Positions 5 to 44,305 of a stretch of DNA of 64,000 nucleotides are shown here, piece by piece. Source of the DNA: a phage. The notes beneath the pieces are model-generated. The model was not told where the DNA came from and did not search any database. It saw nothing but the letters and a program-made list of their open reading frames with translations. How positions within the stretch are numbered: position 1 is the first letter of the stretch; every line of letters begins with the position of its first letter. The stretch lies in the sequence record NC_135730.1. The stretch is one strand, 5' to 3'. The translations under genes and the position numbers were made by a program.

Positions 5-1435
5 ATGGCAGAATCGCAATCTATGATGGTTGAGGAATTGCGTTGGCCTCAGCTGATTGCCACAGTGGAGACTATGAAATGTGATTCCACAGTTGCTACT
101 GCCTTAGATACAAAATATGTTTTCATCACGAAAGCATTCAATGATTTTAAGATCCTTTATAATGTTAAAAGTGAAGACTCTAAGAAAGCTGCCGAGCTTA
201 TAGAGTATTCTTTGCGTAATTTGGCAAACCAACAAACTCTTCGAGATATTGCAAGAAGCGCAGCTACCTTTAACGAGTATGGTTTTTCACTGTTTGAGAA
301 AGTATACCGCAGAGAGAAAGAAGGTAAATATGCCGGGATGCTTCTTATCGATAAAATTGCATTCCGACCTCAGGCCAGCCTGTCCAGATCAGAGCCGTTT
401 GTTTTTGATAAGAATAGCAGAACACTGACAGGTATTTATCAGTCACCTAATGCATTTCTAAACACTCAGAATGCACGCTGGGCTGGACCTCTTGCTGCAA
501 TGCCTTCAAAAGGCTTTAATGAGCCTGAAATTTTCATCCCTGCTAAAAAGCTTATGCTCATGACCCTGTCAGGAACAGAATCTAACCCTGCAGGTGTGTC
601 ACCTATGATAGGTTGCTACAGATCTTTCCGTGAGAAAGTTCTGATTGAAAACCTTGAGGTTGTTGGCTGTTCCAAAGACCTTGGTGGTGTGCTTGAGCTG
701 AAAATTCCTTCCAATATTTTGAACAAGGCCAGCATTGACCCGAATTCAATGGAAGGGAGAATGGTTGCAGACCTTATGCTTGACGCAGCAAACGCCCATA
801 GTGGTGAGCAAAGTTTCTTTATACTTCCGTCTGATAGAGATAAGTCTGGTAAAGAGCTTTACTCCATGACCCTGAAGGGGGTTGACGGTATGGGTAAGCA
901 GTATTCCACTAAAGATTTGATTGATGCCCGTAAGAAGGCGATTCTTGACCGTTTCGGTGCTGGCTTTATTAACCTCGGTAACGATAACGTTGGATCCTTC
1001 TCTCTGTCTGAGTCAAAACAGTCTATCCATGGTCATTTTGTTCAGCGTGATATAGATATTATCACTGAAGCCTTCAATAAGGATCTTATTCCACAGCTTC
1101 TGGCATTGAATGGTATCATCCTTGAAGATGATGATATGCCTAAACTGAAACCTGGTCTGATTGAAGAAGTGGATATGGAGAGCTTCTCCAAGTTTGTCCA
1201 GAGGATCGGTGCTGTAGGTTACTTGCCAAAAACTCCTGCAGTAATTAATAAGATTCTTGAAGTAGGCGGGTTTGATGAAAGATTTGACGAGGACATGGAT
1301 CAGGAAGAGCTGATGAAGCTCTTGGGCCAGGACATCAGTAGAGCTGGTGATGGAATGGCTGCAGGATCCACTGGCAACGGCACTTCTAAGATATCATCAA
1401 CCAGAGATAATTCCATATCCAACATGGAAAATTAA
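5..1435 (+). CDS. putative portal protein (may be 5'-truncated at window edge)
   Basis: 476-aa ORF at the head of the capsid module, upstream of XkdF-like, scaffold, decoration and capsid genes; the frame is open to the window start. Confidence 0.45.
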   Translation: MAESQSMMVEELRWPQLIATVETMKCDSTVATALDTKYVFITKAFNDFKILYNVKSEDSKKAAELIEYSLRNLANQQTLRDIARSAATFNEYGFSLFEKVYRREKEGKYAGMLLIDKIAFRPQASLSRSEPFVFDKNSRTLTGIYQSPNAFLNTQNARWAGPLAAMPSKGFNEPEIFIPAKKLMLMTLSGTESNPAGVSPMIGCYRSFREKVLIENLEVVGCSKDLGGVLELKIPSNILNKASIDPNSMEGRMVADLMLDAANAHSGEQSFFILPSDRDKSGKELYSMTLKGVDGMGKQYSTKDLIDARKKAILDRFGAGFINLGNDNVGSFSLSESKQSIHGHFVQRDIDIITEAFNKDLIPQLLALNGIILEDDDMPKLKPGLIEEVDMESFSKFVQRIGAVGYLPKTPAVINKILEVGGFDERFDEDMDQEELMKLLGQDISRAGDGMAAGSTGNGTSKISSTRDNSISNMEN

Positions 1436-1502
1436 AAATTATCAACACAGGGGGTTGCAAAACCTCCTTTGGCGTGATAAAATAATCCACATGGGGAATA
1501 AG

Positions 1503-1922
1503 ATGCCACAGGAAGAAATGATTTCCTACGAAATCATCTACGAGCCTGACACTAAAGATGCTCACGGTGAGTGGATGAGTAAAGACACCATCAAAAAGGC
1601 TAAAGATAACTGGGACGCAGCATACGCTGCAGGCCTAGTTTCTGAAAACCTTTTCCACTTGACCTCTACAGATGCTTTCACTATTGAAAAAACGTGGATT
1701 CAAGAAGAGTTTGATGTTGTAGTAATTGGCACTGAGCAGGTCATCAAGGCTGGCTCTTGGGTTGCTAAAGTTAAATACAATAATCCTGAATTATGGGAAG
1801 CTAAGAAGGCTGGCATTGTTGGTGGCCTAAGCATTCAGGCAACAGGTAATGTTGATGAAGAAACTGGTGAAATTACCAACGTAAACTTCGGGATCAGTGT
1901 TGTAGAAGAGGGCAATGAATAA
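1503..1922 (+). CDS. XkdF-like putative prohead protease / head morphogenesis protein
   Basis: Motifs DAHGEWMS and ELWEAKKAGIVGGLSIQATG resemble the XkdF family; start moved to ATG 1503 after GGGG to avoid overlap with the portal ORF (track start 1347). Confidence 0.4.
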   Translation: MPQEEMISYEIIYEPDTKDAHGEWMSKDTIKKAKDNWDAAYAAGLVSENLFHLTSTDAFTIEKTWIQEEFDVVVIGTEQVIKAGSWVAKVKYNNPELWEAKKAGIVGGLSIQATGNVDEETGEITNVNFGISVVEEGNE

Positions 1923-2899
1923 TGTCTGAAAAAACGATTACTATTAAAGAGAAGGGGATTGCCCTGTGCCATAAGGCGCAAGGCTATAGCGCTAACAACA
2001 GACCTGTATCTCTTTTGATGAAGAGTGATCTTAAGCCTGAGCAGTTAACAGACGATATTGTTAAGGCACTTCGCCAAGTTACTGTGGAGCTTAGTTTTGA
2101 AGAATACCTGCGTCGTTTCTTCGATATGTGGTATGATGATGCTAAAGCACTTGCACACATGCTTGGTTTTGAGATTGAAGAGGAGGCTTGGGCTAAAGAG
2201 CATCCTGATTGGGAATGGGCGCAAGCTGACGCAGAGTCTTGTATTGCATGGCTGGAAGAGCGTTGTGATAACGTGACCATTCATAAGGCTGCAAAAGAAG
2301 GCAAGCAGCTTAGTGTGGTAGATCAGTACAGCCTGTTAAAAACACAACAGATTTTTGAACAAGTAACCGCTGATCTCTTCGATAAAGAAGGGAACCTGAT
2401 CAAGGCGGTACAGGAACCTGCTGAGGTGGATAAAACTACCGAGGTGGATGATGTTGCAAAATCCGCAAATACCGAGGAGAATCCGGTGGACGTAACCAAA
2501 ACTAAAGAGTATCTGGATCTGCTGAAGCAAGTAGAAGAGCTGAAAGCAACCCAGAGTAAAGCTGAAGAAATCATCAAGGCCCAGGTTGAAGTTGAAAAAG
2601 CTAAAATGCTGACTAAGGCTCAAGCTTTAAGCTTTGTTGGTGAAGAAGATCACGCAACCCTGGTTGACTTCATGCTGGAAAAAGCTAACGAACCTATCGT
2701 AGCTATGCTGGAGAAAGCTCAAGCAAAAATTGAAGAGCTGGAAGCAGAGGTGCATAAAACTAAAGAAGAGTTTGCCACCACTGAACATGGTAATGATGGC
2801 GAACCTGTTGTGGATGATATTGCGAAATCCGCAGAAGAAATTCTTGCTGAAAACGTTGCAAAAGCACTTGCTCGTGCACGTGCAGAATCTAACAAATAA
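1922..2899 (+). CDS. putative scaffolding protein
   Basis: Acidic, helical/coiled-coil-like 325-aa ORF between the XkdF-like and decoration genes; internal repeat VDDVAKSA / VVDDIAKSA; start overlaps the upstream stop (TAATG). Confidence 0.45.
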   Translation: MSEKTITIKEKGIALCHKAQGYSANNRPVSLLMKSDLKPEQLTDDIVKALRQVTVELSFEEYLRRFFDMWYDDAKALAHMLGFEIEEEAWAKEHPDWEWAQADAESCIAWLEERCDNVTIHKAAKEGKQLSVVDQYSLLKTQQIFEQVTADLFDKEGNLIKAVQEPAEVDKTTEVDDVAKSANTEENPVDVTKTKEYLDLLKQVEELKATQSKAEEIIKAQVEVEKAKMLTKAQALSFVGEEDHATLVDFMLEKANEPIVAMLEKAQAKIEELEAEVHKTKEEFATTEHGNDGEPVVDDIAKSAEEILAENVAKALARARAESNK

Positions 2900-2919
2900 G
2901 ACATTAACGGGGGAAATAA

Positions 2920-3309
2920 ATGATTACCGCTCAATATTCTGATATCGTGCTCGGCAAAGTTGATTCTAGCGATGCTGGCTACAATTTTAAAGAGATGGAA
3001 ATTACACTGACAGAGCACCATCATGCTGGTACTGTTGTAACAAAAACTGGCACTATCGCTAACGATGATGGCTCAGACGTTTATGGTGTTCTTGTAGACC
3101 GAGCTTTGGTAAAAGATGCAGGAAAAGTTCATCTTGCTGAGCCTCTGAAAACAGGTCAGAAATATAAACTGGTTGTTGCAGTTCATGGTGTTACCTTTGC
3201 AAAAGATAAGCTGCTGGGGTCTAACGGTGAAGCAGCTAAGCAGGCTGTTCTTGAAAAGCTGGAAGCTCTGGGTAACAAAGTTCACGTCCAGACTCTTGGT
3301 GAAGAGTAA
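2920..3309 (+). CDS. head decoration protein (lambda gpD-like)
   Basis: 129-aa ORF directly upstream of the gpE-like capsid gene; size and position match the gpD family; RBS ACGGGGG. Confidence 0.55.
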   Translation: MITAQYSDIVLGKVDSSDAGYNFKEMEITLTEHHHAGTVVTKTGTIANDDGSDVYGVLVDRALVKDAGKVHLAEPLKTGQKYKLVVAVHGVTFAKDKLLGSNGEAAKQAVLEKLEALGNKVHVQTLGEE

Positions 3310-29151: not shown

Positions 29152-29180
29152 TTGACTATTGTTACAAAATTTGGTAAAAT
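29152..29180 (+). promoter_or_regulatory. sigma70-like promoter with extended -10
   Basis: TTGACT -17- TGgTAAAAT, immediately after terminator 29114-29143. Confidence 0.55.
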
Positions 29181-29213: not shown

Positions 29214-30704
29214 GTGGCTAAGTATGGATTGACAGAGGCTGGTTTCGTTATACCAACCCTAAATGACCTAATCGTTGAAACTAAGCAAAGCCTGATCCGT
29301 GCTTTTGGCGAAAACTTCAACGTACAGAGTAACTCCGTTGCAGATAAGCTGACCACTATCTTCAACGAGCGAGAGTATCAACTTATTCTTATGGCAGCAT
29401 CTGTATACGCATCACAGACGCTGTATGGGGCAGAAGGTATTTACCTGGATGAGCTTCTTGGAAGACAGGGTATTTACCGAAGAGGCCGTTCTAAATCATC
29501 AGGTACCTGCCAGTTGACAATCAACACAACTGTGCCGTACAATATGATTTATGATTCCAAAACTTATACGCTGGACAGTGGCAACTTTGTTCTTAGTAAT
29601 GATGTGCAAGTAGCAGGGAATCTTATTGCTCACAGAATAAATGCTCCGGACCTAAGGATTGGTAAATACAACTTTCAAATTACCAACCAGACAGATGGAA
29701 GTATCAAAACAAAAAGCCTGGTTTTAACAGATAAGTCTCTGGACTCTTCTGATTTGCCAAGCTTTTACGGAGAGATTAAGCAATTCATTGTCGATAATAC
29801 AACCCTGTTGAACGACGATTTGATTCAGATCGATATGTTGACAGGAACGTTGTGGATAGGGTACAATTCGAATCTTGATCAAGTTGGACTTAATAGCAGG
29901 GTAGATTTCAGAGTATCCCCGATTGTAGGGGAAAGAACTATCACACTGGATGTTATCGCTAACGAGGCTGGTGAGCTGTCAAGAGAGGCAGAAACCGTGA
30001 CAACAATGTCACCTACTCCCAGTGGATTCATCAAGCTTACCAACCGAGAAAGATTCAATGAGGGCAGGGATGTTGAGAAAGACTCAGAGTATCGCTTAAG
30101 AGCTTCCAGCACAAAACAGTTAACATCTAAGGCTACCCGTCCTGCAATCCTTAGCGCTGTAAGCGAGGTGAAAGGTGTTGAGAAAGTGAGAGTGTTCTCT
30201 AACAATACCGATAAAACTGATGCTAAAGGTATACCTCCTTACAAGTTCCAAGTGGTTGTGTTTGGTGGTGCAACGGAGGACATTTGCCAAGCACTTTACC
30301 AAACTATAGCCTGTACGAACAGGACTTATGGTAATATTTTCTACGATGTCGCTACATCTGACGGTCAAACTGAAAGAATTTATTACTCCAAGGCAAATAC
30401 CTACCGCCTAGATGTAAGAATTACCTATTCCGGCGCTGCGCTTTCCACAACCGAAAAAGATGCCATTGTAGAGGCTCTTTTGCAGGTTGTTAACGGACTG
30501 GATGTTGCAGATACGTTGTACAATATCCAATTGGTCGGTGCTGCATCCGCTGCTGTGTCGATAGGTAGATTTAATAGACTGGTAATTCAAGTTAAACCAG
30601 TAGGAGCTTCTGATGAAGCTTACACTACAAACGATATTGTTGCGAACATGACCGAGGTGTTTGACCTCGACGAAAGTAATATAACTTTCCAACAAACTAT
30701 TTAA
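29214..30704 (+). CDS. baseplate wedge protein (Baseplate_J / gp6-like)
   Basis: GTG start after GGAGGAG; conserved DSEYRLRA motif matching DTDYRLRI of P2 gpJ; downstream of promoter 29152-29180. Confidence 0.45.
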   Translation: MAKYGLTEAGFVIPTLNDLIVETKQSLIRAFGENFNVQSNSVADKLTTIFNEREYQLILMAASVYASQTLYGAEGIYLDELLGRQGIYRRGRSKSSGTCQLTINTTVPYNMIYDSKTYTLDSGNFVLSNDVQVAGNLIAHRINAPDLRIGKYNFQITNQTDGSIKTKSLVLTDKSLDSSDLPSFYGEIKQFIVDNTTLLNDDLIQIDMLTGTLWIGYNSNLDQVGLNSRVDFRVSPIVGERTITLDVIANEAGELSREAETVTTMSPTPSGFIKLTNRERFNEGRDVEKDSEYRLRASSTKQLTSKATRPAILSAVSEVKGVEKVRVFSNNTDKTDAKGIPPYKFQVVVFGGATEDICQALYQTIACTNRTYGNIFYDVATSDGQTERIYYSKANTYRLDVRITYSGAALSTTEKDAIVEALLQVVNGLDVADTLYNIQLVGAASAAVSIGRFNRLVIQVKPVGASDEAYTTNDIVANMTEVFDLDESNITFQQTI

Positions 30705-30715
30705 GGCGGCGAGAT

Positions 30716-31402
30716 ATGGCAGAGATTAAGTCGGATGTTAACCACATCCACACTCTGCCAGATTTTGTTCAGGGAGGTCTTGACTACCTACCTGGAGATT
30801 TTCTGGCTGAGAAGGTTAATTTAGTCACATTCTTAACCGTATACCTTAAAAGGTTGGAGGATGTTGATAAGATGCTGGTAGGTTTGGCTGAAGGAAGATT
30901 GCTTAACAATGCCAGCGGAAGATACCTTGACGAAGTTGGTAATCAACTTGGTATTCTTAGGAATGGACTTTCAGATGCTGATTTTCGTGCCACACTAATT
31001 ATTCAGCAGGCCGCAGCATCAAGGGGCGGGACTCGCGAAGATGTCATCTCCACCTTGCGACAATTGTTCGGAAGAGACAATTTCGATACGTGGAAAGGAG
31101 ACAACTTCAGGTTTGACATAAATATTAGAAAAACTTGCTTTGACATATTGCAGTCTATCGATCAGATCTTAGATATGCTACCATTACCTTGTCATTTGCG
31201 TCTTACAGAATCGCAAGGGCAAGCTTTTGGTTTTGAAGGGGACTCTACAGCTCTTGGCTTCGGATCAGTGTGGGAAGAAAGCCAATTCGGAGTTGGTGGG
31301 CTGGCTACTTTGCTATATGTTCCTGACGTAAGACCTGATTGGGACACCACAACCATTTATTGTGAAAGTATTACAGTAAACGCAACTAGACAGGAGGGTT
31401 AA
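30716..31402 (+). CDS. putative tail protein I-like baseplate protein
   Basis: 228-aa ORF following the Baseplate_J-like gene; motif LDEVGNQLGILRNGLSDADFR resembles gpI-family proteins. Confidence 0.35.
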   Translation: MAEIKSDVNHIHTLPDFVQGGLDYLPGDFLAEKVNLVTFLTVYLKRLEDVDKMLVGLAEGRLLNNASGRYLDEVGNQLGILRNGLSDADFRATLIIQQAAASRGGTREDVISTLRQLFGRDNFDTWKGDNFRFDINIRKTCFDILQSIDQILDMLPLPCHLRLTESQGQAFGFEGDSTALGFGSVWEESQFGVGGLATLLYVPDVRPDWDTTTIYCESITVNATRQEG

Positions 31403-33474
31403 TGGCAACAGCTGTTTTTAAACCTTACCGTGATTACTCTACAATGGCTGCACAGTTTCATTACCGAACAGTTCAGGATACTGCCGTTCCTGGTAGGGAT
31501 TATAATCATGTTGAGGGCGATGTAACTATCCCAATTGGGGCAACCAGTATTGAGATCCCCGTGGAAATTGTTGACAAATTACCCAACAGGTTGCCAAGAA
31601 GCTTCTTTATGGAGTTTTCATCAAAATCTCAAGGGGTGATGATTGGAACACAAAGGGCGAAATGTACAATAGTTTCAGATGAGAATCTTGACAGGATATC
31701 TTGGGATACTGTTGAGGAGAGAATGTTTCACCCAAGGTATTGGGTTACAACTACTCAGCAGACTGAAAGTACCTGTATTGTTGCAGATAACAACTGTTGT
31801 ATTAACCGTTTAGTGTCAAGAACATATGGAGGTATGGCTGGGTGCATTTGGGAAACAGTTGACAAGTATGACCATTTCGGTATTGGGTTTGATGATCACT
31901 ATGAGATGAGAAACACCAAGCTTTGGTTCAGAATGTCAATAACCAATGCCAGCAACTTCTCCACCCCTGAAAAGATGATTATGACTGTAGACCTTGTTGA
32001 TGGCACAATCATCTATGTTCCTTTAGCTCAATATGCTGTCAGCATCTCAGAGGATAAGAATGTTGCAGAGATTCATATTGATTTCGAGGACTGCGTCGGG
32101 ATGGATCAGAACAACAACATGATGGGTGTTGATCCTCGGCAGGTGAGAAGGATTTTAATACCGCTTATGCCTAAAGACTGGGTAAGTAATAGCACAGACC
32201 CGAGAACGGAAAATGTAGAGTGTGAGTTGCGCCTAGATCTGCTTCAGCCAGACACGGGCTGGAAAATGATGGAACTTAACAATATTCAGGTTAAAGAGCA
32301 CGACGTCGGGATCTGCACCGCATATGACGATATGTGGAACGTATCTCCTTTAAGGGTGTTGAACAATATCAAGCGTCTGGGCTATACCGGAACCATAAAC
32401 CATTATGTTGGTATGAGTCATTATTATGACTACACATGGTCAGGAACCCAATGGTCTATAAACAGAACAGGGGCGCTAAACGCTGCAGCTTATAAATGGC
32501 ATGATGATTTTATGTACAATGCCAAACGACATAACTTCGACGTTATGCAATCTGTAAGTTTTGAGCTTTTCAGCGATGCCTGCCCGTTGGAATGGACCCA
32601 AAGAGACTGGAACGATAACTACGCTAAAACAGGGTATACACCCTGTAGCTACCTCCTGTCTCCAACCATTGAAGAGGGTATGAATTTCCTTACTGCAGTA
32701 TTTAAGAATTTTGCATCAGCCGCTATGAGAAACAACCTGCCAGTGATTATGCAGGTTGGTGAACCATGGTGGTGGTACAATACCGATACTCGTAGACCTT
32801 GTATTTATGATTACCCTACAAAGCAGGCGTTTTATGATGAGACAGGTGAGTATGCATTAGATATTGGGACTATTGACGATCCTAAAACTGGCGGTGTTTA
32901 CGACAAGTATGTAGCATTTTGTCGTGGTAAGCTTGGAGCTCGTATTGCGGCTATTTCAAAGGCAATAAAGGCACACGCTGCATCAGCTCAGATGACAGCT
33001 CTGCTGTTTTTCCCAACCATTATGGAAACCGAGCTTACGCAAAAGCTGAACCTTGCTGACCAATATAAAAAGGAAGCAGGTGCTCTTGATTTCTTCTGCA
33101 CCGAGTGCTACGATTGGGTGATGCAGGGAGGTATTGAAAAGGCAAAAGAGTCTGTAAACATACCTATCGTTAAGTTAGGTTGGCAACCGTCTGAAATACA
33201 ATACCTTGCAGGGTTCGTTCCTAGTAAAGAGCTTGCTCCGGTATATGGCTACGACCCAACCAGGAATTACCAAGAATTTTTATGGAGATGTATCTGCGGA
33301 AACATGGCAACCATAGAGTATAGATACCCTGAGGTAAAACAGTATGTGTGGGCATACCCGCAAGTAATGTCTGACAGCATCACTGTTACAGCCAGAGATT
33401 CTACCGTGCTTCATATGGGGCAGGTTGCTCTGAAAGGGTATGTAGAAGATGTTGTCCCTCCAGACTTCTCATAA
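31402..33474 (+). CDS. tail-associated protein with Calx-beta-like N-terminal domain
   Basis: N-terminal pattern DYNHVEGDVTIPIGATSIEIPVEIVDK resembles Calx-beta; large C-terminal domain of unknown, possibly enzymatic, function. Confidence 0.35.
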   Translation: MATAVFKPYRDYSTMAAQFHYRTVQDTAVPGRDYNHVEGDVTIPIGATSIEIPVEIVDKLPNRLPRSFFMEFSSKSQGVMIGTQRAKCTIVSDENLDRISWDTVEERMFHPRYWVTTTQQTESTCIVADNNCCINRLVSRTYGGMAGCIWETVDKYDHFGIGFDDHYEMRNTKLWFRMSITNASNFSTPEKMIMTVDLVDGTIIYVPLAQYAVSISEDKNVAEIHIDFEDCVGMDQNNNMMGVDPRQVRRILIPLMPKDWVSNSTDPRTENVECELRLDLLQPDTGWKMMELNNIQVKEHDVGICTAYDDMWNVSPLRVLNNIKRLGYTGTINHYVGMSHYYDYTWSGTQWSINRTGALNAAAYKWHDDFMYNAKRHNFDVMQSVSFELFSDACPLEWTQRDWNDNYAKTGYTPCSYLLSPTIEEGMNFLTAVFKNFASAAMRNNLPVIMQVGEPWWWYNTDTRRPCIYDYPTKQAFYDETGEYALDIGTIDDPKTGGVYDKYVAFCRGKLGARIAAISKAIKAHAASAQMTALLFFPTIMETELTQKLNLADQYKKEAGALDFFCTECYDWVMQGGIEKAKESVNIPIVKLGWQPSEIQYLAGFVPSKELAPVYGYDPTRNYQEFLWRCICGNMATIEYRYPEVKQYVWAYPQVMSDSITVTARDSTVLHMGQVALKGYVEDVVPPDFS

Positions 33475-33486
33475 TCAGGAGATAAA

Positions 33487-34527
33487 ATGTCAAAACCTAG
33501 TTTTCCATTAGAGATTTGGGCAGAGGAGGATCAGGTTCTGCCTAACACCCACAGACAGAACAGGCTACGCCCGATTGATGATTTGTGGAGAAAAGGTTGG
33601 GATCTTGGTCAAAAGCCATCCTGTGAAGAACTTAACTATATTTTCAATATGCTCGGAACTTGGGCAAAATACATTGCTGACGAGCAGATCCCCGCTCAAG
33701 AAGGCCGTTATCTGGTACGTGATAATAACTTGAGCGATCTTTTGAACATCCCTGTTGCCCGTAGAAACCTTGGGATTATCACTAAGGAAGAGGCAGACGC
33801 CAGGTATGTAAAAGTTACAGGTGATACAATGACAGGCCCCTTGGGGTTGCAACGTATCAACTTTAAAGCTGCCGAGACAGATAAGGCTTGGATAGAGACA
33901 ACTATTGGCCCGGATAAGACAACTCTCGACTTTGGGTTAAGTGATAATGCTGGGTCGTTTGATGATGGTGGTACATCTACGGTAGATGCGTTTCGTTGGA
34001 GATTCCAGCCAACTCAGCCGGATATTAATCCAGAGTTCACTTTGATGTACCTTAACGCGATCACGGCTAATCGTGCGCTGTTGAAAGTGGTAGGCAATGT
34101 TGAAGTTGTCGATAACATGAGGTGCAATAACCTTACTATCAGCAATACAGCAACATTCACCAACTGTAATGTGGCTAGTCAGTTGACGGCTGGGTCAGTA
34201 TATGTTAATGGTGGTGCAAGTTGTGACAGTATGGTTGTAAGAAGTCAGCACTGTGTTGTCGGTAACAGAAATGTGGTGCGCTCTGTGAATGGAGTGACGG
34301 CTAACGGTAACGGTGATGTAACAATCACTATCCCGCAGACAGGTGTGCAAGACATCAGAATCGGTGCAAGACTTGTTGACGGCGTTTCCGAATCTCCAAT
34401 TCGCAACGGCTACGTTGTCACAGGCTGGCATTTCGGTGACAAAAAAGAGATGCGTGGTTCAACCTACTGGGCAGGACCTTTACAAAAACTTGTAAACGGT
34501 CAATGGATCACTGTTAATTATGCATAG
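33487..34527 (+). CDS. tail fibre protein (paralog 1)
   Basis: 346-aa ORF sharing N-terminus (PLEIWA..D.VL.NT) and C-terminus (QKLVNGQWIT..YA) with 35542-36585; followed by a Tfa-like gene. Confidence 0.5.
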   Translation: MSKPSFPLEIWAEEDQVLPNTHRQNRLRPIDDLWRKGWDLGQKPSCEELNYIFNMLGTWAKYIADEQIPAQEGRYLVRDNNLSDLLNIPVARRNLGIITKEEADARYVKVTGDTMTGPLGLQRINFKAAETDKAWIETTIGPDKTTLDFGLSDNAGSFDDGGTSTVDAFRWRFQPTQPDINPEFTLMYLNAITANRALLKVVGNVEVVDNMRCNNLTISNTATFTNCNVASQLTAGSVYVNGGASCDSMVVRSQHCVVGNRNVVRSVNGVTANGNGDVTITIPQTGVQDIRIGARLVDGVSESPIRNGYVVTGWHFGDKKEMRGSTYWAGPLQKLVNGQWITVNYA

Positions 34528-34541
34528 ATCGGAGGACTAGC

Positions 34542-35126
34542 ATGAAAATACTTCAAGAGTTTAAACTTTACCAACCGGGATCTGGCGAATACCACTCCAA
34601 CAAGGAAACCAAGGAGCTGACCCCTCAAGAGGTTGAGGATTACACCGCATACACTGGGTATTTTTTACGTAATGATGATGGCGATTGGTATGTGCAGTCA
34701 CGAACATTACGACAAGAAAATCCGGGTTGTATCTTCCTACTTGTTGACGAGAAGGGAATTCTTAAGACATCTACAGAAGAACCTGATGCCTTATGGCCTG
34801 CTCCAGGTCTTCGTGTGGTTATCGCCAAAAAAGAAGAGGTACCAGAAAACATTATGCTTCACCACGACGCTTTGCGTTTAGTTGGTGATGAATTTGTCAC
34901 AGATAATGAATTCTTTGTTCAACAGGCAGAGGGTGTCATAGAGACAGAACTTGCTTGGGCTACTGCTAGAATTGGTGCCTATCAAGACATGATTGACCTT
35001 GAATATGATCTTACTGATGACCAGAAACGTAACATCAGAGATTTGAAAATGTACAGGGTAAAACTTCTTGAAATAGATACATCTAAAGCCCCTGACATTT
35101 TCTTCCCGGAGCGACCTACCCTCTAA
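34542..35126 (+). CDS. tail fibre assembly protein (Tfa / gpG-like)
   Basis: C-terminal motif MYRVKLLEIDTSKAPDIFFPERP typical of caudoviral tail fibre assembly chaperones. Confidence 0.55.
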   Translation: MKILQEFKLYQPGSGEYHSNKETKELTPQEVEDYTAYTGYFLRNDDGDWYVQSRTLRQENPGCIFLLVDEKGILKTSTEEPDALWPAPGLRVVIAKKEEVPENIMLHHDALRLVGDEFVTDNEFFVQQAEGVIETELAWATARIGAYQDMIDLEYDLTDDQKRNIRDLKMYRVKLLEIDTSKAPDIFFPERPTL

Positions 35127-35137
35127 GAGGAGGTGTT

Positions 35138-35452
35138 GTGGAGTTGGATTTGGCGGCATTGTACGGTATCTGCATGGGTACCGTTGTCCCGATCTGTGTA
35201 TGGGCTTTCAACCAGTGGCACACCAAATGGAAAGGCATTTCCAAGAGGTTGGATGAACTGGAGAAAGACCTCATCTTAGTGAAAAACAGTATGGTTACAA
35301 AAGATAAACTTGATTCCGTTATCGAGACCCGGTTAAGCAAGCTAGAGGCCGATATTAACGACCTTAAGCAGGATGTCAGGACAGATGTCTCCGGTATCCG
35401 AGCTGATGTACAAAAGATTTTGCACATGCTCGTAGAGCATAGTAAAAGGTAA
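35138..35452 (+). CDS. small membrane protein with N-terminal TM helix and coiled-coil tail
   Basis: GTG start after AAGAGGAGG; hydrophobic LAALYGICMGTVVPICVWAF segment followed by a heptad-rich region. Confidence 0.35.
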   Translation: MELDLAALYGICMGTVVPICVWAFNQWHTKWKGISKRLDELEKDLILVKNSMVTKDKLDSVIETRLSKLEADINDLKQDVRTDVSGIRADVQKILHMLVEHSKR

Positions 35453-35461
35453 ACAAAGGTC

Positions 35462-35493
35462 AGAACGGAAAGGACTCCGTTCTTGCATTTTGT
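35462..35493 (+). terminator. intrinsic terminator
   Basis: AGAACGGA ... TCCGTTCT hairpin followed by TGCATTTTG. Confidence 0.45.
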
Positions 35494-35511
35494 TCTCTAA
35501 AGTGTTAAAAT
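35483..35511 (+). promoter_or_regulatory. sigma70-like promoter with extended -10
   Basis: TTGCAT -17- TGtTAAAAT, overlapping the 3' arm of terminator 35462-35493. Confidence 0.45.
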
Positions 35512-35541
35512 AGTCCTAAGGAATTTTCTCAGGAGAACGCG

Positions 35542-36585
35542 ATGACTAAACCAGTTATCCCTCTTGATATTTGGGCCAATCAGGATGTTGTGCTTGAAAA
35601 TACGGGAGAGTTGAATAAGTCTCAACCAAAAAAAGAAGAGAGATTGAAAGGTTGGGATATGACACAAAGAGTGGCATGTGAAGTTGTTAACTTTGAACTT
35701 CACATGCTTTCTGCGTGGTTAAAGCATCTAACAGAAGATGTTGTCCCAGGATGGGATAATAGATTCTTAAGGGTCACTAATAATCTAGCAGACGTTCCAG
35801 ACAAAGCTGCTGCACGTCAAGTTCTCAACGTATACTCGCCTGAAGAAATGGACGATCTGTATGTTGACAAGTCTGGAGACATAATGACTCAGACTCAAAC
35901 TTTAGGCCTTCAAAGAATCGAGTTTGCATCTGCGTCGACAGACAATGCGGCAATATATACCACCATAACCTCAGACAAGACGATGATGGATTTCTGGATT
36001 ATGGACAACATCGGTGGTGCTGACGGCACAGATCTTGATGATCCTTCCCACCAAATAGACGGGTTCCGTTGGAGATTTCAGCCTTCTGGTGGGCAGCCTG
36101 TGTTTTCGGCTATGAAGCTCAATGCTATAACTGCCAACCGTGCAAGACTGGCTATCCAAGGAAATCTTGAATGCAACGATGCAAAAAGTTCCTCTGCAAA
36201 TGCCAATGCAGTTACTATACCAAGAGCCACTGTTAATGGACAACAATCCTGTGGAAGCGCTCAAATAGGTGGAAGAGTTGATTGTAACGATGAAACCGTC
36301 AGGGGCCAATATGCAACAGTTGGTGGAAGAAACGTGGTCCGTAGGGTAAATGGTAACAGCGCAGACGGTAGTGGTAACCTTACTATCCCTATGCCCAGCA
36401 GAGGGGTTGATGATGTAAGGATAGCAAACCGTTTCAAAACCACCTACAGAGAGTCAAGGGTCTACCCCGGACATGTGATGTGCTCTGGTAACTACGCTTA
36501 TAAACACCCTTATCAAGGTGATTACTGGACAGGTGCTATCCAAAAACTTGTAAATGGTCAATGGATCACCATATCTTATGCTTAA
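35542..36585 (+). CDS. tail fibre protein (paralog 2)
   Basis: 347-aa ORF with termini homologous to 33487-34527 and a divergent central region; own promoter at 35483-35511. Confidence 0.5.
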   Translation: MTKPVIPLDIWANQDVVLENTGELNKSQPKKEERLKGWDMTQRVACEVVNFELHMLSAWLKHLTEDVVPGWDNRFLRVTNNLADVPDKAAARQVLNVYSPEEMDDLYVDKSGDIMTQTQTLGLQRIEFASASTDNAAIYTTITSDKTMMDFWIMDNIGGADGTDLDDPSHQIDGFRWRFQPSGGQPVFSAMKLNAITANRARLAIQGNLECNDAKSSSANANAVTIPRATVNGQQSCGSAQIGGRVDCNDETVRGQYATVGGRNVVRRVNGNSADGSGNLTIPMPSRGVDDVRIANRFKTTYRESRVYPGHVMCSGNYAYKHPYQGDYWTGAIQKLVNGQWITISYA

Positions 36586-36596
36586 AAAGAGGGTAA

Positions 36597-36863
36597 ATGA
36601 AACTAACTCAGTTTTTATGGGGACTGGTTGCGGCATCTGATGACCCTACGAAAGTGTCCCAATCTAAGCTATGGTCGAACATAGGCATGGCGGTGATGAC
36701 TGGGGTGTTTATTCATATGGGGTATAATGATACGCTTCCTGAATGGTATGCGTGGATATACGCGCCTTCAGTAGCTTGCCCCCAGCTTATTAGCAAATTC
36801 ATCTCGCTCCGGTGGGGTTGCCAGCACCCTGACCACGTTAAAAACGAAGAGCAAAAAGCTTAA
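36597..36863 (+). CDS. small hydrophobic protein
   Basis: 88-aa ORF with hydrophobic stretches (IGMAVMTGVFIHMG); RBS AGAGGG. Confidence 0.3.
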   Translation: MKLTQFLWGLVAASDDPTKVSQSKLWSNIGMAVMTGVFIHMGYNDTLPEWYAWIYAPSVACPQLISKFISLRWGCQHPDHVKNEEQKA

Positions 36864-38618: not shown

Positions 38619-38628
38619 TATATATCTA

Positions 38629-38655
38629 ACCGCTCCTGACGGGGCGGTTTTCTTA
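38629..38655 (+). terminator. intrinsic terminator
   Basis: ACCGCTCC-tgac-GGGGCGGT then TTTCTT. Confidence 0.5.
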
Positions 38656-41600: not shown

Positions 41601-44305
41601 GTAACGCTGTCGACCCCTATATCATCATGAGTGATCTAAGATCGAACATGGATGGAACATCCATATCTATGCAAGTTCCGGTAACAAACGGATACAAGCG
41701 TGTTGTGATGATCATTAAGTGCGATCTGATAGGTAAGCAAGTTCTTGCAGAGAACGGAACTTCCACCCACCTATTTGAGACTGCTCTGCACTATCAGTTT
41801 GCTGATTCACCTTTTGCAGGGGATAAGAGAATATCTGACACAGACGCTGTGCGATGCAAGAAATTTATGCTAGGTGGTGGGTGGTGGTGGTATGAATTTG
41901 ACTTAACAGACAAATTCACCGACACATCTAAAGTGGTGACAGGACTTCGTCTAGACCTGGGTGAGAACATGCATAAAAGTGTTTGTGATGGCACCTACGG
42001 TGATCCTACGGTATACTTGAAGTATGTTTCTTTTGAGCACCCTGAAGATGTTGTTTATGGTCCAAAACTGAGGCTGTTTGGCAATTGGATTGCTAAAGAC
42101 AGAGAAGGGATGGGTAGGAAGGTAAGAGGCTTCCTGGTCGATGCTGGCACAGAGGATATGCTGGTGAATGCGGTGTGGCCTGAATTACCGGGAACTCAGT
42201 GGGACAATTCTGCTAAGTCTATAAACTGGTTCAATATCCACAGAGCTATGTGGGCAACTAACTGCTATCTGTGGAAAGAGTTGAATGACGGCGCTTTCGG
42301 GTTTACTGGTGGCAGAAGAATGGCAATCATTTGCTGGACAACGCTGCAGAGATGTTATGACCATGACTATGAGATTGGAGGCAGGGCATGGAAAAATATA
42401 AGGGATAGAATCATAACTAACTTTGCAGATCCTAACGGTGGCGGGGCGTATGGTTTCGACTGCAGCAGACTTATCCATTTGAACGGATCTTCGGCCTATA
42501 AGAAAGAAGGCTACTCCGGGTCCATGATTGAATGGGGCTTGGTAAAAGATGCTCGTGTGTTGATGGGTCAGCAACTTGCTGCTGCAATAGGACCGAACGC
42601 AGTACAATCTGTTAAACCAGCGTGGTTCGATATCCCATTATGGTCCTCTGGAACACCGGGAACTGCTGCAATCAACCCTACCACTGGGGATCTGGAAATC
42701 TCCTGGGAGGACTTGAAGCAGGTCGGTGGTTGGGACAAAACAGGGTATCAGGTTCAGTGGTGGAGAGCTGATGGATCTTTAGCTGCTGATGAGTTTGTTA
42801 AGGACAATTTCTACACTATGTCCTCTGCAAAAGCACAGCAATTATTTGGTCAGGCCACTCCGTCAACGATCACCATGTCTATGTGCTGTAAAGACAACAG
42901 GACTGGAGCTTTGGGGCCAAGGGTTGCTAAGGTTTTCTCAGGTATTAAATGGAATCTTCCTGTTCAAAGTGTTTCATGGAAGCAAATAGGTGATAACAAG
43001 CTGCTGGTTACCCCTGCCTGTCAGTTCAACGCAACTCTTAACGTTGATCCTGCTGTTGCGGCAAACTCAGCTAAAGCTTCTGACTTCTCTGTGTCTAACA
43101 CTGCTATGGCAGATGTGAGGAAGATTGACACACTGAACGCCAGAATTACCTGTAAAAACACTTATGGCACATTCCAAATCATCAACAACTTCACAGATGC
43201 TGATTCTAAGGTAGTGAGGACAGCAAGCCAGACTCTGAGTTTAGGAACTCTGGCCTATGCGGCACTGATCACCGAACAGTCGGCAACACTCCAAGGAGGC
43301 GGTGTAGGCAAGTCCATTGCAACACCTGTGTGGAAGCCGAATGAGTGGGTTGTGTTTGATTTGACTGTGGACTTCTCCAGTGATAATAACTGGACATGGG
43401 TAAGGAATTGTTTGTCACAGTTGATGGGCGGTACAAGCTCCATTAGCGATAGTCACGACTCTACCGACCCGAGCGTGTTCCAGGTGGGTAAAACTCACCC
43501 AGAGACTGGAGAAACGTTGCCTGACAGGAAGTATGCTTTGGTTTGCATCTCTTACGGGAAGGCAGATGTCACATTCTCAGGGACACACACTTATAACGGA
43601 ACTTACAACTTCTCAAGGAAGTATAGTCTCAAAGCAGGGAACATTATAGACGAGGTCGGTGTGCTGTATAATCCGGGCAACGGCATAGGGATTGTGGGCG
43701 GTAAACTGCAGATGCAGGAACCTTCTATCACCCCTTCCAACGTATCCGGGATTAGAAAGACTTGGGAAAGTAGTAATACCAACATTGCAACAGTGGATGC
43801 CACCACAGGGCTGGTAACATTTAAAGCTACTGGGAATGTCACCATAAAGTTTGTAGTTACAGATGATGCAGGCCGCAAAACGTCTTCAACATCGTTTACT
43901 GTCAAACAGATGGCACCACAGTGGAGAATGTGGATAGGTACAGCAACAAACGGGGCATACCCTAATCCGGCAGGTACTTCTGGTATGAAGACTTTCTCTA
44001 CAAGCAAACCGATGGAGTACGGCAGCGGTCCTAAGGTAGGGCAGATGGTGTACTTTGGTGCGTATATTCCTGAAATTATAGGGCTTCCGAGAAGTCAGCT
44101 TCAGTTGCTGTTTGGGGCTGGTGTTGACGATCTTGCCACTTTCGGGTATAGCGACAACATCGAGGCTGCAAGGAGTTCAGGATGGGTAGGGTTCAGAATG
44201 GAGTCTGGAAAGGAAGGCAGGATTCTAGGGACAGCCTCTATAGGTGTTATGTTCCCTGGTGACCAGCAGTATCGTCTAGAAGCCTACGCAACCTTTTCTC
44301 GTTAA
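38669..44305 (+). CDS. giant virion-associated protein with bacterial Ig-like (Big_2-like) domain
   Basis: 1878-aa ORF, last gene of the structural operon; Big_2-like segment IATVDATTGLVTFKATGNVTIKFVVTDDAGRKTSSTSFTV near the C-terminus. Confidence 0.55.
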   Translation: MLPIPLLKLGRHFLDKRGGIKELAVLSYPIDNSDGTSNTVSYVNSLAILFDDGQLNITGYNRFGECRTGDLDTINYPNEAAWNVDHVWRADRAFVIRTFDNKFFYIGCTAGLIGSEAAGGNDVCVREWTPLPEQIVTGLHLDTHPERLVEVMGGVNNTVWVIAAPEADGMLHLYGSGNNTYGSLHVDKNQHATPVKIGETSENPETGPWKNPSINCEVHDNSVIFGGPRGFWIAGYDFLRNNSRNDLVWPPVQITRNDLRGIPADEEWKGFMCGPNGAIIATQRMHRPDDQQLVNVFYGQNIWGDDTWRELNITYTHEVIMARGYGTSGIFFNNGTKQYRGFSRNLCNDIGAQSANNSPRSDFIHYQALATAKYVEQRLPVSWTESVYFQGIHREGFLGTFTVVNGKLWWSGIPRGSFAGSNNLFGGRLNSQGFTEVPENWYKNVPVDSWGVEDIFDVNGVSSVSNIYIGDTVKMKLKPQPEGATFIIDKIELVNAAGTVVTDANYQFSTNWNHGGANEVVVTQYNRNVNRRGLYSVKITYHDKHGTGRTHTTRTLNWNTIVPAYPSNGKWHTVGRNKQFHVNDTVYFGLNAAQPAVEGDTSYIVRLHRMDAGSVTYDVTQEIYDQRRTTYDNVVKTQALWEFNPNGRGGKMLQVNEQNGTSLTVHEHPDPWPDPGKPNSGARTLKIVSHDAGYFGIRWEATVRYADGTTNNIGITLGGTSEDNSLKIAYTPRGISIDNIDVVRNGYGDVNVKVTLGEHLGGERIIMYAFDHDPRTNGTYANQAWSYLINAPEPNTKEFYYGMKRDVCKKTGTHDWIAICVKDERTAWDEPVNRWFIGIPTRSDKYVAEYIVCMGGTNLNMCWNEDVNKYSDYDYMRDYSCNLWFNQTTGYPPRQVRVNPAIFTDTQVFLTKQANEVRTFKNKYDPNKWFYNCYGAFFWGPGELPGGGSCFEAATYASDRFMGQVKKYKIIPGPETLGNAVDPYIIMSDLRSNMDGTSISMQVPVTNGYKRVVMIIKCDLIGKQVLAENGTSTHLFETALHYQFADSPFAGDKRISDTDAVRCKKFMLGGGWWWYEFDLTDKFTDTSKVVTGLRLDLGENMHKSVCDGTYGDPTVYLKYVSFEHPEDVVYGPKLRLFGNWIAKDREGMGRKVRGFLVDAGTEDMLVNAVWPELPGTQWDNSAKSINWFNIHRAMWATNCYLWKELNDGAFGFTGGRRMAIICWTTLQRCYDHDYEIGGRAWKNIRDRIITNFADPNGGGAYGFDCSRLIHLNGSSAYKKEGYSGSMIEWGLVKDARVLMGQQLAAAIGPNAVQSVKPAWFDIPLWSSGTPGTAAINPTTGDLEISWEDLKQVGGWDKTGYQVQWWRADGSLAADEFVKDNFYTMSSAKAQQLFGQATPSTITMSMCCKDNRTGALGPRVAKVFSGIKWNLPVQSVSWKQIGDNKLLVTPACQFNATLNVDPAVAANSAKASDFSVSNTAMADVRKIDTLNARITCKNTYGTFQIINNFTDADSKVVRTASQTLSLGTLAYAALITEQSATLQGGGVGKSIATPVWKPNEWVVFDLTVDFSSDNNWTWVRNCLSQLMGGTSSISDSHDSTDPSVFQVGKTHPETGETLPDRKYALVCISYGKADVTFSGTHTYNGTYNFSRKYSLKAGNIIDEVGVLYNPGNGIGIVGGKLQMQEPSITPSNVSGIRKTWESSNTNIATVDATTGLVTFKATGNVTIKFVVTDDAGRKTSSTSFTVKQMAPQWRMWIGTATNGAYPNPAGTSGMKTFSTSKPMEYGSGPKVGQMVYFGAYIPEIIGLPRSQLQLLFGAGVDDLATFGYSDNIEAARSSGWVGFRMESGKEGRILGTASIGVMFPGDQQYRLEAYATFSR

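Follow-up and report, generated by a model that had tools for sequence, protein, structure and literature searches.

The two-fibre locus

The 64 000 nt stretch of phage DNA analysed here (sequence record NC_135730.1; hereafter, the window) carries on its plus strand two genes for short tail fibres, fibre A (33487..34527, 346 amino acids, aa) and fibre B (35542..36585, 347 aa). Between them lie, on the same strand, a gene for a tail-fibre chaperone of the Tfa type (34542..35126), a 104 aa reading frame (35138..35452), a hairpin with a T-rich tract (35462..35483) and a promoter-like element (35483..35512). An AGGAG ribosome-binding site, read from the sequence, stands 6 nt 5′ of the start codon of fibre B (35531..35535). 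The original prediction for this DNA, made from its letters alone, had placed the two fibre reading frames at exactly these coordinates and had taken them for a duplicated receptor-binding module. The best overall explanation of the locus, which we hold with a probability of about 0.75, is that it encodes two old paralogous short fibres, with one Tfa, that would form two non-equivalent fibre sets; the identity of the locus and its general mode of action, taken on their own, we regard as nearly certain.

The locus is that of an rV5-like Vequintavirus. The 8 kb around the fibre genes are 98.8% identical in DNA sequence to Escherichia phage rV5 and match 118 phage records, nearly all from Vequintavirus. 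In the annotated records the genes run gp34, gp33, gp32, gp31, gp30, gp29, gp28, gp27, and both order and spacing are as in rV5 and MaxTheCat. Fibre A is the orthologue of rV5 gp33 (100% aa identity) and fibre B that of rV5 gp30; the BASEL records label both reading frames ‘short tail fiber protein’ and the gene at 34542–35126 ‘tail fiber chaperone’. Two paralogues with a chaperone gene are thus a real but ordinary arrangement, already known and published since 2013 (PMC3606486, PMC8594841). Kropinski 2013 reported 42.3% identity between gp30 and gp33 of rV5, and gp30, gp32 and gp33 were all detected in rV5 virions by mass spectrometry; the authors suggested that two chemotypes of lipopolysaccharide (LPS) are recognized (PMC3606486). 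Maffei 2021 related the paralogous short tail fibres by homology to the one such locus of the phi92-like phages and, at greater distance, to GpS/GpU of phage Mu, and found that waaC and waaG mutants resist all these phages, the same LPS-core glucose being needed across the Vequintavirinae (PMC8594841).

The two fibres are related along their full length (BLASTP: 43% identity, 58% positives, E=9e-94), and not merely through short common motifs. PHROG 4465 (‘tail fiber protein’, 342 profile positions) matches both end to end (aa 1–346 of fibre A, E=1.9e-171; aa 1–347 of fibre B, E=6.7e-166). The C-terminal QKLVNGQWIT..YA is common to both, as had been noticed from the sequence, but the accompanying picture of conserved termini around a divergent centre did not survive alignment. 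Similarity is patchy, at 23–63% identity per 30-column block (50, 37, 27, 40, 63, 43, 53, 23, 33, 57, 27 and 62%), and the best-conserved stretch is central, at residues ~121–205 (best block ~121–150, with FRWRFQP and LNAITANRA nearby). The weakest blocks are residues ~61–90, the shaft at ~211–255 and the tip loops at ~301–330. The description of the region as paralogous cassettes stands for the fibres themselves but not for the symmetry that it implies, for Tfa follows fibre A only and an 88 aa membrane protein follows fibre B. The longest identical DNA run shared by the two fibre genes is 14 nt and nucleotide identity is 37–69% per block, so the duplication must be old. Recent gene conversion between the copies in the window was considered and rejected, given that 14 nt maximum and a nucleotide identity of 51% in the tip.

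Both proteins begin with a domain homologous to the short tail fibre of Pectobacterium phage phiTE (9cuy). Over the N-terminal ~110 residues the phmmer E value is 1.4e-19 for gp33 (aa 1–108, 33487..33810, matching residues 1–111 of 9cuy_c), 1.9e-8 for gp30 (aa 1–83, 35542..35790, matching residues 1–83) and 1e-31 for a family profile of nine sequences that includes both paralogues. In cryo-electron microscopy (cryo-EM) of phiTE, short-fibre residues 3–92 form the globular joint through which the fibre binds the wedge-1 protein (PMC11972413). This docking domain has diverged asymmetrically. Within residues 1–70, conservation among 26 other homologues reaches 85% or more in 30 columns; none of the 30 is replaced in the gp33 clade, as against ten in the gp30 clade (Fisher p=0.0008). 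The residues lost in gp30 are E9, P19, R28, I30, W34, G41, K43, Y51, N54 and Y62, and the replacements include P19E, I30K, W34R and Y62H. Outside the docking domain, the loss of conserved residues is symmetric between the paralogues.

At the opposite end, the C-terminal ~65 residues match the receptor-binding end of Mu S (5yvq). The match has E=6.2e-6 for gp33 alone (aa 286–346, including the QKLVNGQWITVNYA end; 34342..34524, aligned to 5yvq 440–501) and E=8.2e-12 for the family profile, which also finds the alternative Mu tip S′ (8ju3, E=2.2e-5) and aligns aa 288–347 of fibre B (36403..36582) to the Mu S C-terminus. With paralogous short fibres, a Mu gpS-type tip and a sister relationship in the tree described below, the idea of a duplicated receptor-binding module was right in substance. 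The motif QK.(V/I)NG.W occurs in Mu S, Mu S′ and phiTE as well and is a structural motif of the whole family, not one peculiar to these two genes.

Across lineages, tip residues 293–346 are the most conserved segment within each paralogue (93–94%; 94% among gp30 lineages). Compared with each other, the gp33 and gp30 tips have the same length and framework but are only 42% identical, and fixed differences are denser here (0.46) than in any other segment. Identity to the tips of PVP-SE1 and phi92 is 57% for gp33 and 36–45% for gp30. The PVP-SE1 and phi92 tips are themselves 72% identical, as against 12–38% in the remainder of those proteins, and the gp33 tip is 58.6% identical to fibre tips of unrelated ~52 kb Salmonella phages (Rosemountvirus-type); the S144 paper describes comparable tip sharing with GAP31.

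Origin and constraint of the second copy

Relatives were drawn from GenBank phage records and from Logan/ENA contigs; a scan of IMG/VR for gp30 relatives gave four loci, too few for population analysis. Both fibre copies are present in all of the ~116 Vequintavirus records, whereas Seunavirus, Mydovirus, Henunavirus, TH18, the phi92-like phages and three metagenomic lineages have one, and we take these single-copy relatives to represent the ancestral state. In Seunavirus, Mydovirus, Henunavirus and TH18 the order is fibre, Tfa, 104 aa membrane protein, a ~157 aa membrane protein with four transmembrane (TM) segments, a ~88 aa membrane protein and a gp28-type fibre. The 4-TM gene is gp43 of PVP-SE1 (L003:5997-6470 in our collection of loci), with equivalents in L005–L010 and a precomputed Pfam assignment to PF26221 (Phage_phiTE_239). 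In Vequintavirus its slot holds the hairpin, the promoter and gp30 (compare 35453–35541 in the window), and tblastn with the 4-TM gene found no significant match anywhere in the window. In phi92 and one of the metagenomic lineages (L023) the region 3′ of the Tfa gene is different and the 4-TM gene is absent.

A neighbour-joining tree pairs gp33 with gp30 as sister groups (bootstrap 0.73); the gp30 branch is the longer of the two. They also have derived residues in common, for example F171W. The sister grouping and the shared derived residues fit a duplication in the stem of Vequintavirus.

Both genes have since changed little. Across 7–10 diverged genomes the ratio of nonsynonymous to synonymous substitution rates (dN/dS) is 0.024 for gp33 and 0.057 for gp30, with seven and 22 variable aa positions, respectively, that do not cluster in the tip. 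These values indicate that both fibre genes are under strong purifying selection, without cassette turnover in the genus. The possibility that gp30 is a decaying pseudogene was rejected on the same dN/dS value and on its intact frame in all genomes.

The constancy of the genes bears directly on the suggestion, implied in the original prediction, that the fibres are recently exchanged host-range cassettes, hot spots of exchange that retarget the phage. At deep levels the tips are indeed mosaic, as the Rosemountvirus-type similarity of the gp33 tip and the PVP-SE1/phi92 comparison illustrate, the S144/GAP31 sharing is on record, and the tips of one lineage, L021 (see below), have been homogenized. 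Within the genus, however, both genes are nearly invariant in the ~116 Vequintavirus genomes: 95 records carry gp33 at 99% identity or more and 99 records carry gp30 at 95–99%, and the few variable positions do not cluster in the tip. Fibre B is 100% identical in aa sequence to its homologue in O157 typing phage 4. Maffei et al. came to the same conclusion, finding the short-fibre paralogues to be without considerable allelic variation (PMC8594841). We consider recent exchange very improbable.

Lineage L021 is known from one low-coverage metagenomic contig (ENA ERZ15185469 NODE_327, 116-3251), whose copy B resembles gp30 in its N-terminus and shaft. Copies A and B of this contig are 89% identical in aa and 74% in nucleotide sequence over the tip (the last ~54 residues), as against 27–59% over the remainder. 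The orthologous tips of L021 and the window are 61% identical, and so less alike than the two tips inside L021. Such a pattern suggests that the paralogues in L021 have exchanged tips or undergone gene conversion, with a junction near residue 289. Because of L021, the stable difference between the paralogues would appear to lie in the N-terminus and shaft, not in the tip.

Expression, chaperone use and a proposed pair of fibre sets

Fibre B is preceded by a conserved hairpin and a conserved promoter-like element. The predicted promoter originally placed at 35483–35511 coincides with P030, a putative late promoter published for rV5, and has been retained in other lineages. It consists of TTGCAT (35483–35488), a 17 nt spacer and TAAAAT (35506–35511). 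The second hexamer is immediately preceded by TGT, corresponding to the TGn of an extended −10 element, and the late motif TGTTAAAATA occupies 35503–35512. Positions 35490–35526 are letter-identical to the rV5 ‘putative late promoter P030’ (Table S4, PMC3606486), which Kropinski 2013 defined via the motif TggTAaAAtA (PMC3606486). The string TGKTAAAATA occurs five times in the window, always on the plus strand (5998, 9519, 23661, 29172 and 35503), as against 0.56 expected; in 100 shuffles it never occurred so often. The wedge gene gp36 (29214–30704) has the copy at 29172 just 5′ of its start (rV5 P036). In lineages L018–L020 (gp30 78% identical) and in L021, both hexamers, the TGn and the 17 nt spacing are invariant, and the sequence of the spacer varies. 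A generic sigma-70 scan did not report the promoter at 35483–35511, because its −35 hexamer matches at only three of six positions; the support for it comes from the late-promoter motif and from conservation, not from that scan.

The hairpin at 35462–35483 was listed as a terminator-like site, with a folding energy of −12.8 kcal/mol, and in relatives two-sided changes have preserved the pairing at three of the six positions of its stem. It is likely that a conserved terminator or attenuator, followed by the predicted promoter, separates gp31 from gp30.

The gene 3′ of fibre A, the rV5 gp32 orthologue, is a Tfa gene, as had been proposed: residues 121–192 match Pfam Caudo_TAP (PF02413; 45.7 bits, cut-off 22.1, E=9e-12) and the protein belongs to PHROG 136 (E=2.2e-36). 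A tblastn search across the window found no second Tfa, which makes it the sole copy there. Because there is a single Tfa gene and both fibres end in QKLVNGQWIT..YA, one Tfa probably serves both; the extreme C-terminal motif is closer between gp33 and gp30 than to other genera. The same facts, together with the near-equal length of the fibres and the presence of both in virions (PMC3606486), could be taken to mean that gp33 and gp30 co-assemble as heterotrimers. However, their identity of 43% overall falls to 23–27% in shaft and tip parts that must pack in register, their homologues Mu S and the phiTE short fibre are homotrimers, and a separate predicted promoter suggests independent dosing; we judge co-assembly to be very improbable.

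The explanation that we prefer, two old paralogous fibres forming two non-equivalent sets, can be set out as follows. Each fibre would, by homology, be a trimer with a globular N-terminus docking on the baseplate wedge, a short shaft and a Mu gpS-type tip. The tip would bind the LPS core, on which these phages rely as their terminal receptor, and Tfa would fold or cap the fibre tip. Fibre A and Tfa would be read within a long late operon, and fibre B, behind the conserved hairpin, would have a conserved late-type promoter and a ribosome-binding site to itself. The second copy would have arisen by duplication in the Vequintavirus lineage and come to lie in the slot of the 4-TM gene of single-fibre relatives. 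Fibre A would have retained the ancestral docking domain and the common PVP-SE1/phi92-type tip; fibre B would be the faster-evolving copy, with altered conserved docking residues and, in this lineage, a distinct and highly constrained tip. The outcome would be a virion with two non-equivalent short-fibre sets at different baseplate positions, probably with different fine LPS-core specificity.

The individual steps of this model are held less firmly than the whole. We infer a different baseplate site from the derived docking domain of gp30, and a different fine LPS-core specificity from the two constrained but different tips; these two steps and the shared chaperone each range, in our estimation, from somewhat doubtful to slightly favoured. 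Two positions rank above two receptors because the L021 paralogues share a tip. The fuller proposal, that gp30 docks at a second site on the baseplate or fibre network and confers a second LPS-core specificity in the rV5 lineage, with tips that can be swapped, is tentative.

A simpler duplication for dosage would make the two copies redundant: they would bind the same LPS-core sugar and provide more fibres, sharing or contesting the same baseplate sites. The fibres are of equal length and framework, the L021 paralogues have nearly the same tip, and Vequintavirinae and their single-fibre phi92-like relatives are alike in depending on waaC and waaG, from which Maffei et al. argue for one secondary receptor (PMC8594841). 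Redundancy sits poorly, however, with a density of fixed differences that is highest in the tip even though each tip is so well conserved within its own paralogue, and with docking residues that have changed at ten of 30 columns in gp30 and at none in gp33; moreover, redundant copies seldom hold a dN/dS of ~0.05 for so long. We regard this alternative as unlikely.

The derived state of both ends of gp30 could also mean that fibre B is a structural strut or adaptor, with a tip that touches another fibre rather than the cell. There is precedent in phiTE, whose long fibre contacts the short fibre (PMC11972413), and the rV5-like fibre network comprises about nine annotated fibre proteins, of which three have been located (PMC12143355). 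Yet in its framework the gp30 tip is still of the Mu S type and it has kept the C-terminal motif, copy B of L021 bears a normal gp33-type tip, and we found no evidence of a partner. A strut appears to us improbable.

Several observations weigh against two non-equivalent, receptor-binding fibre sets. In searches of the PDB, fibre B alone did not match Mu S at E≤1, and the assignment of the gp30 tip is owed to paralogy and the family profile. AlphaFold2 monomers computed from a 32-sequence alignment were of low confidence (mean predicted local distance difference test score, pLDDT, 61.6 for fibre A and 59.7 for fibre B; predicted template modelling score, pTM, 0.32). Foldseek comparison of those low-confidence models with the PDB returned noise only (best E=0.14, nothing at E≤0.001). 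The sister relationship has moderate bootstrap support, at the value given above, in a simple neighbour-joining tree. Tip divergence cannot be obligatory to a two-fibre design, since the L021 paralogues share a tip, and the uniform need of the Vequintavirinae for LPS-core glucose fits a single shared receptor equally well (PMC8594841). Lastly, the low-resolution cryo-EM maps of MaxBurger (7–9.5 Å) located a single short-fibre density, with a Mu-like tip, in which the paralogues are not separable (RBPseg paper, PMC12143355).

Two small membrane proteins within the tail-fibre locus are under strong purifying selection. The gp31 orthologue (104 aa; PHROG 5345, unknown function, E=1e-48) has a hydropathy peak at residues 1–25 and a predicted coiled coil, and its gene follows that of Tfa in each of the Vequintavirinae genera examined (dN/dS 0.031). 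The gp29 orthologue (36597..36863, plus strand, 88 aa; PHROG 1322, ‘membrane protein’, E=2.7e-32) is kept before the gp28-type fibre gene, again in every genus examined (dN/dS 0.013). A strong terminator-like hairpin lies at 38628–38649, 3′ of the gp28-type fibre gene (rV5 t028). Farther downstream, GC skew flips sign near 44 kb, past the end of the 5.6 kb gp27-type gene at 44305, which would fit a change in gene orientation; in rV5, gp27 and gp26 point in opposite directions and are separated by bidirectional terminators. On the other side, the gene 5′ of fibre A (31402–33474) encodes a Calx-beta domain together with the N-terminal and TIM-barrel domains of a non-contractile tail sheath protein of the N4 gp65 type, a class tied in the literature to recognition of the NGR glycan (enterobacterial common antigen, ECA, having been proposed earlier). 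Among the database records, 16–21 unannotated ‘Campylobacter phage’ entries (MG065635–MG065682; host Campylobacter jejuni) are 98–99% identical over this region to rV5-like phages of E. coli, and are probably mislabelled or contaminant isolates.

Relation to known fibre systems

Among broad-host-range E. coli phages, those of the rV5 type are some of the commonest isolates; they are candidates for use in therapy and in biocontrol. To predict or engineer their host range, it would help to know which of the short fibres sets off irreversible adsorption and to which LPS-core types this applies. Our analysis adds an asymmetric docking domain, distinct tips under constraint, the shared tip of L021 and a conserved terminator–promoter pair. 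These details sharpen a small question, that of the placement and specificity of the two paralogues; their existence has not been new since 2013.

The closest known systems are the gp33, gp30 and gp32 of rV5 itself and the Vequintavirus paralogues and chaperone of the BASEL collection (PMC3606486, PMC8594841), which are orthologous at 96–100% aa identity. Order, spacing and the predicted late promoter P030 are identical, and there is no difference of substance from the present locus. The single-fibre loci stand one step further away: the fibres of PVP-SE1 (gp46–gp41), GAP31, VIK251, TH18 and phi92 (gp147/gp148) are 38–50% identical to gp33, and the single-fibre Vequintavirinae, though not phi92, carry the ~157 aa 4-TM gene in the slot that Vequintavirus fills with hairpin, promoter and gp30.

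Three better-understood fibres provide the wider frame. T4 gp12 is alike in role, as a trimer on the baseplate that attaches irreversibly to the LPS core, and HHpred similarity was reported in 2013 (PMC3606486). T4 differs in having one short-fibre gene and in using the chaperone gp57A, not Tfa. No gp12 chain was among our PDB matches at E≤1, whether by single sequences or by profile, and we treat gp12 as a functional analogue only, not a member of the family. The phiTE short fibre (9cuy/9mjn; PMC11972413) shares the N-terminal ~110 residues and a C-terminal ..IQKKVNGVWVTI motif with the present fibres, but is a 554 aa protein with a long coiled coil and Ig-like domains, is encoded in a single copy and is a proposed flagella binder. 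The Mu fibres S/S′ with U/U′ (5yvq, 8ju3, 9ki1) share the C-terminal ~65 residues, with the motifs ..RLG.., ..GHV.TG.. and ..QK.INGxW.. (E=8e-12), a Caudo_TAP chaperone gene directly 3′ (here of fibre A only) and an LPS-core receptor. The Mu fibre is longer (504 aa, as against 346 aa here) and its N-terminal domain is unrelated to the phiTE-like one of the present fibres. Mu alternates its tips by inversion of the G segment, whereas the locus described here carries two complete fibre genes side by side.

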